Source: an uncultured Actinomycetota bacterium
GTDB taxonomy: Bacteria > Actinomycetota > Actinomycetes > Propionibacteriales > Nocardioidaceae
Length of the DNA stretch: 64,000 nt
Assembly (NCBI GenBank): GCA_963754025.1
Contig: CAVWEC010000002.1
Location: forward strand, 50,566 to 114,565
Direction: 5' to 3'
Part shown: piece after piece, positions 31,829 through 33,904 of the stretch
Position numbering within the stretch: the first letter of the stretch is position 1
How the letters are laid out: each line of letters starts with the position of its first letter
Position numbers and translations under genes: made by a program
The notes under the pieces: model-generated
The model's input: the letters and a program-made list of their open reading frames with translations, nothing else
Databases searched by the model: none
What the model was told of the DNA's origin: nothing

Positions 31829-31853
31829 CGCCGGTCGCTCAGCGCGACCGGCG
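31829..31853. terminator. Hairpin between convergent pheT and MerR-DICT genes
   Basis: CGCCGGTCGC-TCAGC-GCGACCGGCG perfect 10-bp stem overlapping the minus-strand stop. Confidence 0.55.
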
Positions 31854-32759
31854 ACCTCGCAGGGTCGTGCCGTCGGTGTAGGCGATCATCCGGTTGAAGA
31901 CGGCGTTGGCCGTCGTCAGGGACGCCGGCGCCGGCGGCGGCATCTCCTCGAGCTCGGTGAGGGCGGTCCCGCCGCTGGCTGCGCCCAGGCCCGCCGCGGC
32001 CTGGGCGGACACCACGGCGGCGTCGCGGACGATCCGGCCGTCGACGGTCCAGAGCGCCTCGAAGTGGCGCTCCGGCTCGGCGGCGTCCTGCCCCGGGAGC
32101 TCCCAGGCCACCAGTGCGGCCGCGAGGGTGGGGGAGTCGTGGACGACGATCCACTCGCGCAGCAGCGGCGAGTCCGGGGGCAGGGCCACGCGTGCCGGCG
32201 TGCTGGCGTCGTCGTGGTGGTCGAAGTCGGCCATGGCGATCGCGCACCGCGCCGTGCGGGCGAGCTCCTCCCAGCGTTGCTGCGACTGCCCGAAGTAGCG
32301 GCCGCGCTGGAAGGTGCCGACCAGGACGCCCCGGGCTGCTGCCGCGGTGGCCTCGTCCTCGATCGCCCACGACAGCGCCAGCAGCGTCCGCTTGGTCAGG
32401 GTGTACGACGCGAGGTCGGGGTGCCGGCGGGCGAGGGCGGCGAAGACGGATCCCGTGAAGGTGACGTCCTCGGCGCGCTGGGCTGACTCGATGGCCTGCT
32501 CGAGACGCATGCCCCGGTCCCGCTCGTGCAGCACCCGTTGCACCGCTCGCACGTGGGTACCGGTGTAGCGGCGGTGTCCGCTCGGAAGCCGGATCGGCAC
32601 GGGGAACCCGTAGCGGGTCTCCCACATCCTCACCTGTTGGGGGGTCAGGCCGGTGTGACCGGCGAGCTCGCCGATCGTCAGCAGGGTCTCGTCGTCCGGG
32701 GTGCTCACGGGGAGGGACTCTGCCAGCAGGGGTTGCGTGGGTGCGTTCGACATGGCCAT
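31839..32759 (-). CDS. MerR-family (CarH/LitR-like HTH) regulator fused to a DICT sensory domain
   Basis: LTIGELAGHTGLTPQQVRMWETRYGFPVPIRLPSGHRRY; then KRTLLALSWAIED, GTFQRGRYF, LREWIVV, FEALWT; TATGCT -10 six nt before ATG 32759. Confidence 0.8.
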   Translation of the reverse strand: MAMSNAPTQPLLAESLPVSTPDDETLLTIGELAGHTGLTPQQVRMWETRYGFPVPIRLPSGHRRYTGTHVRAVQRVLHERDRGMRLEQAIESAQRAEDVTFTGSVFAALARRHPDLASYTLTKRTLLALSWAIEDEATAAAARGVLVGTFQRGRYFGQSQQRWEELARTARCAIAMADFDHHDDASTPARVALPPDSPLLREWIVVHDSPTLAAALVAWELPGQDAAEPERHFEALWTVDGRIVRDAAVVSAQAAAGLGAASGGTALTELEEMPPPAPASLTTANAVFNRMIAYTDGTTLRGRRSR

Positions 32760-32765
32760 ACTCGG

Positions 32766-32795
32766 AGCATATATCAACAACCTGTTGAATATTCT
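32766..32795. promoter_or_regulatory. Divergent promoter region with imperfect dyad (candidate operator)
   Basis: Minus -10 TATGCT (32766-32771), plus -10 TATTCT (32790-32795), dyad ATATCAACA-ACC-TGTTGAATAT between them. Confidence 0.6.
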
Positions 32796-32816
32796 GTGGA
32801 ACAACTGGAGGTCGTC

Positions 32817-33047
32817 ATGACAGAGCAGTCCGAGAACCGCGCCGGTGAGGTCGTCGACTGGAGCGACCTGGGGCGTGAGATGTGGTCGTTCCTCACCGGA
32901 CGACGCGCGGCCATCAACTACCAGTTCGTCGAGATGGAGGTCGAGGTCCCGCGCGACACCGGGCCGCAGGCCCCGCGTGCGGTGTGGAAGATCGACGGCA
33001 CGCTGCGCATCTCCAGCGAGGACGACACGACCCGCGGCGCGGCATGA
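32817..33047 (+). CDS. Small hypothetical protein (76 aa)
   Basis: GGAGG SD at 32807-32811; DWSDLGREMWSFLTGRRAAINYQF...WKIDGTLRI; ATGA overlap with the next gene. Confidence 0.8.
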   Translation: MTEQSENRAGEVVDWSDLGREMWSFLTGRRAAINYQFVEMEVEVPRDTGPQAPRAVWKIDGTLRISSEDDTTRGAA

Positions 33048-33904
33048 GCCGGTTGCGCGCCCGGGTCGAGGCCGACGTCTGCTTCTCGGTCGAGACGCCC
33101 GACCAGCAGCGGGTCGCGGGGTCCCTCACGGGGAGCGGGAGTGACCTGGAGCTGCGCATCTCCGATGCCGCCGCGTTCGCAGGCGGTGCCGACGCGGCGG
33201 GCGTGCGCCTGCTGGCCGAGGAGCTCGCCGACCTCGGCCTGGTGGTCCGCGTGTCCGACATCGACGGTGCGCCGCTGGTCACCCTCGGCGCGGTCCGCTC
33301 GCCCTGGTGGCAGCGGCCCGTGACCCGCAGTGCGCACCTGCGCGTCGCGGGACTCCGCGGCCTGGCCACTGCCGCCCGGGGACGCCTGCGTCGTGACGAC
33401 GCACGGCTGCCCGGGAGCGGCCTGGTGCCGCCGCGCACGCCGTACCCGGTCGCGCCCACCTTCCTGCGCCGGCCCGTCCGGCGAGTCACCACGACCCACG
33501 ACCCCGGTCGTGGCGGTGGCCCCAGGTTGGTCGAGGTGCCGGTCGACGGCGTCGTCCGCTCACCCCACCCCGTCCACTGGCTCCAGCGTCAGACGACGAC
33601 GATCGGCAGCGACCCGTCGTGCGACGTGGTGCTGTCCGGGCTCGCCCCGCTGCACGCGGAGGTCCGGCACGACGAGGCCGACGAGTTCGTGCTGGTCGCC
33701 CACGACGCGCGGGTGCGCGTCCACGGCGAGCGGGTCACGACCAAGGTGCTGCGCACGGCTGCCCGTGTGGATCTCGGTCCGCGCACGCTCACCTTCGTCC
33801 GCGAGGAGTACGCCGACCACGGCCGACCGTTCGGCGGTCGCATCGGGGGCGAGCTGGGGGTGCAGCGCCGCCAGCCGCCACGGTCGTCCCTGCAGGAGAA
33901 CTGA
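33044..33904 (+). CDS. Protein with C-terminal FHA-like domain
   Basis: TTIGSDPSCDVVL..LAPLHAEV...VRVHGERV...LRTAARVDLG follows the FHA beta-sandwich pattern. Confidence 0.75.
   Translation: MSRLRARVEADVCFSVETPDQQRVAGSLTGSGSDLELRISDAAAFAGGADAAGVRLLAEELADLGLVVRVSDIDGAPLVTLGAVRSPWWQRPVTRSAHLRVAGLRGLATAARGRLRRDDARLPGSGLVPPRTPYPVAPTFLRRPVRRVTTTHDPGRGGGPRLVEVPVDGVVRSPHPVHWLQRQTTTIGSDPSCDVVLSGLAPLHAEVRHDEADEFVLVAHDARVRVHGERVTTKVLRTAARVDLGPRTLTFVREEYADHGRPFGGRIGGELGVQRRQPPRSSLQEN

Follow-up and report, generated by a model that had tools for sequence, protein, structure and literature searches.

Light-controlled transcription in non-phototrophs is understood mainly for the B12-dependent CarH and LitR regulators, and the B12-independent classes are largely unexplained. 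Amongst these B12-independent LitR classes, class II requires a separate LOV partner, and class V, which is reported mainly in Micrococcales and is devoid of a B12 domain, is of unknown function (PMC9758184). In Streptomyces, litR and litS form a divergent pair, in which a MerR-type regulator acts on promoters of both directions, with a sigma-type protein expressed from one of them (PMC11519972). The subject of the present analysis is a three-gene cassette from an uncultured soil actinobacterium of the Nocardioidaceae (Nocardioides), located within a stretch of 64,000 nucleotides that is referred to here as the window (positions 50,566 to 114,565 of contig CAVWEC010000002.1, assembly GCA_963754025.1). 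The cassette lies between pheT and argC and is composed of a gene for a MerR-type regulator with a DICT sensor domain (MerR-DICT) and, divergent from it, an operon for a 76-residue protein and a 286-residue FHA-like protein. It is very likely to be a genuine, self-contained unit of regulator, operator and target of the LitR/CarH kind. A fuller reading, in which this LitR/CarH-kind cassette is a light-linked switch whose output is a two-protein complex, is the one towards which we lean overall.

The regulator is encoded on the minus strand, running leftwards as an earlier note on this DNA had reported, within an open reading frame that spans 31839-32804 and in which the ATG at 32759 is the start consistent with the orthologues.

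31839-32759, minus strand: MerR-DICT regulator, 306 residues from the ATG at 32759 (MAMSNAP...) or 304 residues from 32753
32484-32678, minus strand: winged helix-turn-helix (HTH) DNA-binding domain, CarH/LitR/CarA subtype, residues 26-90
32100-32450, minus strand: DICT sensor domain, residues 102-218, Pfam PF10069

Both domains are found above the curated Pfam cut-offs, MerR_1 at residues 26-90 with an E-value of 3e-12 and DICT with 66.4 bits against a cut-off of 23.8 (E-value 3e-18, profile positions 2-128 of 129). Profile comparison assigns the HTH to the CarH/LitR/CarA subtype. When a profile made from 30 family sequences was run against the PDB it matched LitR (3WHP, E-value 2.7e-18), CarH (5C8D, 3e-18) and CarA (2JML, 3.7e-17) over the HTH only, with other MerR proteins at 1e-8 or worse. 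The best NCBIfam match is also CarH, at 43 bits against a cut-off of 400 bits and again for the HTH only, and the regulator scores far under the cut-offs of the equivalog models for CueR, SoxR and MerR. Some orthologues are annotated as 'light-induced transcriptional regulator' by JGI and as 'DICT sensory domain-containing protein' by NCBI.

The protein therefore has the same HTH subtype, at E-values of about 1e-18, as CarH and the class I LitR proteins, including those of T. thermophilus (CarH 5C8D, LitR 3WHP), the CarH and CarA of Myxococcus and the LitR of Streptomyces. As with these regulators, a sensor module comes after the HTH with no long MerR coiled coil, since the DICT domain starts only 12 residues past the HTH, and the gene is transcribed away from its target. 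The likeness extends to an operator with more than two half-sites that overlaps the promoters, here predicted from the sequence, and to the presence of MerR-DICT paralogues at carotenoid genes, which is the usual position of litR and carH. What differs is the sensor, where DICT replaces the B12-binding_2 and B12-binding domains, neither of which is found by Pfam, and where there is no conserved histidine to act as a lower axial ligand. The target differs as well, being a protein pair without an assigned family rather than crt genes. In LitR classes II-V, too, the head is of the LitR/CarH type and the C-terminus is not a B12 module, although class II retains a remnant of the four-helix bundle that is not seen in the MerR-DICT regulator; the identity of class V with the MerR-DICT proteins is an unverified lead. 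The classical MerR system (merR/merT) is similar in having two overlapping promoters that diverge from a palindromic operator, but the present regulator has neither the effector-binding cysteines nor the long dimerisation helix, and its HTH matches CarH by a margin of 10 orders of magnitude over MerR, CueR and SoxR.

No structural relative of the DICT domain was found in the PDB profile search. It is followed by a conserved C-terminal region that terminates in the motif NRxxAYxD. In an alignment of 30 sequences (alignment A5) the invariant residues of the sensor part include S128, E132, D133, F148, Q149, R160, W161, E200, W201, E218 and E232, and invariant acidic and aromatic residues are found in IEDE, FQ, RW, REW, WE and FE..W.

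The regulator and the small gene are separated by a gap of 57 bp (32760-32816), which the earlier note had called AT-rich and which was measured at 43.9% GC compared with 73% across the module. It contains the following elements.

32766-32771, minus strand: TATGCT, candidate -10 box of the regulator gene, read from the sequence (AGCATA on the plus strand)
32774-32788, unstranded: palindrome TCAACA-ACC-TGTTGA, candidate operator, family consensus CCTAAACA-N3-TGTTTAGG
32790-32802, plus strand: TATTCT, inferred candidate -10 box of the small-gene operon, together with the third half-site TGTGGAAC

The palindrome, in the form TnAACA-N3-TGTTnA, is present in the gap of all 29 cassette loci with no more than two mismatches and is perfect in 17. 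Across the alignment of these 29 loci its distance to the regulator start codon is constant, and to its right there is a conserved block, gGaaagtgtt.aa, within which lies the third half-site (family consensus GTGTTnAA). A TAnnnT-like hexamer is also found at an equal distance from the regulator start codon in most of the orthologous loci. The candidate -10 box of the regulator sits 6 nt before the ATG, which suggests that its mRNA is leaderless. Within the 3.06-Mb genome the perfect palindrome occurs once, where by our own estimate about 0.015 occurrences per genome would be expected by chance; sites with one mismatch fall in GC-rich coding sequence and no second credible operator was found genome-wide. 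Since the perfect site occurs once and none is found at the photolyase or possible crt genes, the regulon of this organism appears to be local. The same type of palindrome is common to the cassette loci, to loci that encode a sigma-region-2 protein (described below) and to loci linked to photolyase.

The conservation of the cassette was followed through 26 loci that were collected via the 286-residue FHA-like protein, and further cassette loci came from samples of genomes at the genus and class level. The small gene is directly before the FHA-like gene in 26/26 of the loci collected in this way, and a MerR-DICT gene is divergent from the pair in 20 of them, in which the regulator orthologues are 47-86% identical. 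The six loci without it belong to N. aequoreus, to one cut contig and to four Arthrobacter-type loci. With the additional loci from the genus and class samples, the divergent three-gene layout is found in 29 loci in all, which is more than chance would give. The closest named genome, Nocardioides aestuarii JCM 12125, encodes cassette proteins that are 85-89% identical. Within the class sample, the MerR-DICT subfamily is represented in 20/401 genomes from 7 genera.

The earlier note had described the three genes as a regulator with its divergent target operon, and this description holds in all the features that it listed, with the recurrence of the trio in 20 of the 26 loci and the gap palindrome in 29/29 speaking for it. 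It had also proposed a search for co-occurrence, in which a failure of the genes to occur together in other genomes would count against the idea, and no such failure is seen. Its guess of a one-component system responsive to light or redox is indirectly backed by the CarH/LitR subtype of the HTH and by the paralogues beside crtE-crtI and photolyase. As to its remark that pheT is commonly adjacent to argC in actinomycetes, only 135 bp separate the two genes in one Nocardioides genome (L106), an 'empty site', and others have from 1 to 6 genes between them. In Nocardioides (L100-L129) this interval is variable, with no genes in L106, one in several genomes, and 3-6 in others, drawn from the cassette, the sigma-region-2 gene, an EEP-family gene and MDMPI/DinB-like genes. 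Only 7/26 of the cassette loci are located between pheT and argC, and it can thus be deduced that the cassette moves as a unit.

In the Arthrobacter-type loci L034 (3560-3742), L035 and L036, which lack a MerR-DICT gene, a different, AT-rich palindrome, TATCAAATAATTGATA, is found upstream of the small gene. In L034 there is a possible GntR-type open reading frame nearby, as judged from its N-terminal sequence alone.

The two products of the operon are encoded by translationally coupled genes, which the earlier note had called ATGA-coupled; the FHA-like ATG overlaps the small-gene TGA (33044-33047).

32817-33047, plus strand: gene for the 76-residue protein, with a GGAGG Shine-Dalgarno sequence at 32807-32811
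33044-33904, plus strand: FHA-like gene, encoding a 286-residue basic protein of 31 kDa with an isoelectric point (pI) of 10.6; its ATG overlaps the preceding TGA
33044-33397, plus strand: N-domain, residues 1-118, with a beta-beta-beta-alpha-beta-beta order in the AlphaFold model
33398-33523, plus strand: Arg/Pro-rich linker, predicted to be disordered, with the motif PPxTPxPxAPTFLRRPVRRVTTTHDPxRGGxPR
33524-33805, plus strand: degenerate FHA domain, residues 161-254, from AlphaFold and Foldseek
33806-33904, plus strand: C-terminal tail, EEYADHGRPxGGRIGGE, and stop codon; disordered, with a predicted local distance difference test (pLDDT) score below 50

The 76-residue protein is acidic, with a pI of 4.6 and a mass of 8.6 kDa, and has a mean column identity of 70% over the 26 loci. 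It has no family match in Pfam or NCBIfam and no sequence relative in the PDB. Its AlphaFold model, a helix and a beta-hairpin, has a pLDDT of 61, and a fold search with this poor model gave noise only (E-values of 2.4 or worse). The family is nonetheless large, with 220 representatives when clustered at 50% and 3724 clusters at 90%, all of them named 'hypothetical' and free of Pfam domains. Apparent fusions of the small protein to proteins of 350-480 residues (P0008, P0018, P0054, P0070 and P0060) were rejected as frameshifted calls from error-prone assemblies, and the multi-repeat matches P0066 and P0116 were rejected as spurious.

The AlphaFold model of the 286-residue protein has an overall pLDDT of 71.6 and is made up of the N-domain, the linker, a beta-sandwich and the tail. 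The N-domain scores about 77-87 over the greater part of residues 11-100, falling to 61 at residues 41-50. It has no relative in Pfam or the PDB, the Pfam family of the FhaA N-domain does not match it, and a profile of it retrieved 10 unnamed proteins only in the last word-indexed protein search; the full-length protein has no NCBIfam match. Residues 122-152 of the linker fall below 50, and P130, T132, P135, P138, T139, T151, G158 and R161 are invariant. In the tail, the invariant residues are E255, A257, D258, H259, G260, R261, P262, G265, R266, G268, G269 and E270, in an alignment of 27 sequences that includes Arthrobacter proteins of 39% identity. This overall arrangement, in which a disordered linker joins a globular N-domain to an FHA domain nearer the C-terminus, is similar to that of FhaA (Rv0020c).

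The core of the FHA domain, residues 181-250, is modelled with a pLDDT of about 87-94. The label 'FHA-like' in the earlier note was well chosen, for although the Pfam matches are sub-threshold (FHA, PF00498, 18.0 bits against 20.7; Yop-YscD_cpl, 27.7 against 33.2), the modelled domain resembles more than 40 FHA structures in Foldseek (E-values of 7e-8 to 1e-5, template modelling scores on the target of 0.75-0.83), with OdhI/GarA at 7e-8. OdhI and GarA share the fold with 26-28% identity, they are the best matches to the C-terminal domain in structure and in sequence, the gene ends 44 bp before argC and a conserved TTT motif precedes the FHA fold; together these points would fit a GarA/OdhI-type, phosphorylation-dependent regulator of glutamate and arginine metabolism, which would also explain the vicinity of argC. 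Such a role is nevertheless highly improbable. In a profile alignment with OdhI, H204 is kept, G188 never varies and S189 hardly does, but most of the family has GS in place of GR, AxxH in place of SxxH and no asparagine in the NG loop. Because the arginine, serine and asparagine that contact phosphothreonine are missing, the FHA fold should not bind phosphothreonine. The ETTS-type N-terminal motif of GarA/OdhI is absent as well, and those proteins are single-domain proteins of about 140-160 residues, whereas the 286-residue protein carries an unrelated N-domain of 118 residues. Moreover, just 7 of the 26 loci are at pheT-argC, no gene for a Ser/Thr kinase or phosphatase is seen beside the cassette, and what is conserved beside the small protein is the N-domain, in many cases with no FHA part attached.

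This last point is drawn from the wider distribution of the pair. An N-domain protein follows the homologue of the 76-residue protein in 41/43 of the actinobacterial loci examined. In the class sample the small protein is encoded in 24/401 genomes, from 20 genera and about 10 families and as a single copy per genome, and the pair is present in about 11% of the sampled actinomycete genera. Where the regulator is absent, the next open reading frame carries the N-domain in 15 of 17 loci (E-values of 1e-8 to 1e-21), often without the FHA part. More distant homologues of the small protein are found in contigs of 37%, 49% and 73% GC, each with a protein of about 93-117 residues following within 2-15 nt. 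A broadened N-domain profile matches two of these three partners (E-value 6e-15 in the 73% GC contig and 1.5e-6 in that of 37% GC), which are stand-alone proteins of about 100 residues; one distant partner, P0394, is tied to the family solely by its position after a small-gene homologue. Since the pair recurs in loci without the FHA part and in distant contigs, the conserved core is the 76-residue protein together with the N-domain, and it occurs far more widely than its association with MerR-DICT. The linker, pseudo-FHA domain and tail are lineage-specific additions.

One of the distant small-gene contigs also encodes a sigma-54 activator. At locus L076 (5473-5913) a stand-alone N-domain protein of 146 residues faces a MerR-DICT gene with the usual palindrome, and neither an FHA part nor a detectable small gene is present there.

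Two overlapping genes with oppositely charged products (pI 4.6 and 10.6), an acidic small one and a basic large one under a local repressor, could also be viewed as a toxin-antitoxin-like or defence cassette, and the variable position and the use of pheT-argC as an insertion hotspot would agree with this. We give this view very little credence. PADLOC has no match for either output protein, its sole hit being that of the MerR HTH to mad1. The conservation is unusually high and looks vertical, as reflected in the mean column identity of the small protein and the single copy per genome, the neighbours are core genes and no mobile-element genes occur in the loci that were read.

The question of the signal was approached through the neighbourhoods of 37 MerR-DICT loci. 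The small-gene/FHA-like operon is faced in 11/37. In four (L041:265-5920, L074, L075 and L079), the regulator is divergent from genes for a polyprenyl synthase, a CrtI-like desaturase and a P450, which is a crtE-crtI context, and the gap holds a different motif, CCTAGATnTnnTTGGnAGTGTTGCATAG. DNA photolyase adjoins five of the 37 in three arrangements and at least two regulator clades, where about 0.1 photolyase neighbours would be expected by chance (our own estimate for a 12-kb neighbourhood, a 4-Mb genome and 37 loci). A frequent divergent partner, faced at several of the 37 loci and by many MerR-DICT genes in Nocardioides, is a protein of 94-118 residues that contains only region 2 of sigma-70 (Sigma70_r2, E-value 2e-9), the best PDB match of which is M. 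tuberculosis SigK (2e-15) and which has no region 4. This is reminiscent of litR-litS, with the difference that the Nocardioides protein is region 2 alone and not a full extracytoplasmic function sigma factor, and that no such gene is present in the window. The region-2 protein could be one half of a split sigma factor or an RNA polymerase decoy. Examples of this family are found at L058:5604-5888, L061:5632-5931, L039:5594-5905 and L018:4834-5151 (alignment A4).

The cassette operon itself is extended in other species, where the next gene is that for the sigma-region-2 protein, overlapping by 4 nt, followed by a gene for an EEP-family enzyme, and at L048 the small gene, FHA-like gene, sigma-region-2 gene and photolyase gene follow one another in one direction. 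In the tree, the regulators linked to crt genes, to a small membrane protein and to LuxR fall into supported clades. Another clade holds three of the four sigma-region-2-only regulators and also the photolyase-linked sigma-region-2 regulator. Because paralogues are located at photolyase, crt and sigma-region-2 genes, in a pattern like that of litR-litS, a signal of light or photodamage is indirectly favoured; taken on its own, and by analogy, the claim that the signal is light or is linked to light is put forward as possible, short of probable.

Several observations weigh against this reading and must be set beside it. Most MerR-DICT loci are not beside light genes, and GuaB-like proteins, QcrB, LuxR-type regulators and small membrane proteins recur as well. 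The regulators of the module type do not form one clade and are dispersed on an unresolved backbone of the tree, and classical LitR-type genes with MerR and B12 domains also occur in several Nocardioides genomes. In the genome of the window, the photolyase and possible crt genes are without the operator, and a scan of 31700-34100 for consensus promoters and terminators was empty, the promoter elements being weak matches. The small-protein pair is found without the MerR-DICT regulator in 17 of the 24 positive genomes, in varied housekeeping contexts, and for this reason its role need not be related to light. To our knowledge, no ligand or chromophore has been demonstrated for DICT. No cysteine or histidine is invariant in the sensor part of the 30-sequence alignment, which argues against the chemistry of a B12 histidine, a LOV cysteine, an Fe-S cluster or metal-binding cysteines.

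Alternatively, the switch may be just as local but answer to a signal other than light, such as a metabolite, a nucleotide second messenger or a redox change, with the pair serving as a housekeeping or general-stress factor that is placed under different regulators in each lineage. The occurrence of the pair without MerR-DICT extends over about 10 families, its neighbours there vary and include qcrB, guaB-type and phosphotransferase system genes and TetR or GntR regulators, and the palindrome upstream of the Arthrobacter small gene differs. The sensor lacks a conserved cysteine or histidine that could bind a chromophore, and elsewhere DICT is joined to GGDEF/EAL and histidine-kinase outputs (Pfam description; PMC8612252). 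A non-light signal would leave unexplained both the paralogues at crtE-crtI and photolyase and the HTH subtype of a light regulator, and we regard it as rather unlikely.

Amongst the other contexts, the MerR-DICT clade represented by L047, L050 and L080-L082 faces a small membrane protein (MVSVILIS...) and has an operator-like motif of its own, TATACAGGnnTGTAGA. A GuaB-like gene is beside three of the 37 loci and a QcrB-like gene precedes MerR-DICT in two. GuaB-like (IMPDH-family) and QcrB proteins recur beside the pair or the paralogues at L035:4994-6448, L042:6867-8303, L028:3-818 and L098:1767-2687, and this recurrence may be either functional or merely shared synteny.

For the light-linked switch, the following mechanism is proposed. 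The CarH/LitR-type head, joined to DICT in place of the B12 module, would bind the palindrome and the extra half-site between the back-to-back promoters, where each -10-like box lies 1-2 nt from a palindrome arm. In this way the regulator would control its own gene, probably as a leaderless transcript, and the coupled operon for the 76- and 286-residue proteins, this operon being the only predicted target with a perfect operator in the genome. By analogy with CarH and LitR, the resting state is most likely one of repression through promoter occupancy, with release upon a change in the state of DICT. The signal would most probably be light or light-linked damage, such as ultraviolet or photo-oxidative stress, sensed either directly or via a partner. 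A stoichiometric complex most likely brings together the acidic 8.6-kDa protein and the N-domain of its basic 31-kDa partner, and for this complex the pseudo-FHA fold and the Gly/Arg-rich tail may provide docking surfaces for a client. This client may be nucleic acid or the repair or transcription machinery, because elsewhere the operon extends to the sigma-region-2 gene, an EEP-family nuclease/phosphatase or photolyase. Our best guess is that the output is an adaptor complex in a photodamage response.

A bolder interpretation is that DICT is a novel photoreceptor or photodamage domain and that the MerR-DICT regulators are a B12-independent family of light switches, present in Nocardioidaceae and a second actinobacterial family, with separate paralogues in charge of carotenoids, of photolyase, of a split sigma-like factor and of the complex of the small protein with the N-domain-FHA protein. 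This is considered unlikely. Were it true, the small-protein/N-domain pair would represent a new and widespread photodamage-response complex. Four conserved tryptophans in the sensor lie beside arginine or glutamate (R160-W161, R199-E200-W201, W217-E218 and W235), and DICT could conceivably sense without a cofactor via tryptophans, as plant UVR8 does, or via a cofactor that is new to the fold. Whatever the signal, the cassette, with one regulator, one operator, one operon and a near-identical copy in a cultured strain, offers a compact test bed for what DICT senses. The small-protein/N-domain pair, with its thousands of 'hypothetical' members, is also placed in a regulatory context for the first time. 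Should the link to light not hold, a well-delimited new unit of regulator, operator and target is still left.

The genes and structures that flank the cassette in the window are given below.

28184-29296: pheS, upstream of pheT
ending at 31826: pheT, convergent with the MerR-DICT regulator gene
31831-31859: GC-rich hairpin that overlaps the regulator stop codon, from the fold of 31815-31875
starting at 33949: argC, 44 bp downstream of the FHA-like gene

The hairpin between pheT and the regulator, which the earlier note had placed on the left side of the module, was recovered with a folding energy of -40.3 kcal/mol and a z-score of -3.69 relative to shuffled sequences. It has no T-run, though, and the terminator scan makes no call there; the hairpin probably serves as a 3'-end structure in both directions. 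In the contig from which the window is taken, 16,000 bases are masked or withheld and read N, which brings its apparent GC content to only 63.6%. Finally, the 44 bp before argC (33905-33948) contain two TCATGC repeats in AT-richer sequence, TTGTCGAATATCATGCGGTGACCTGTATGGTCATGCAG, and these repeats could be an ArgR box.

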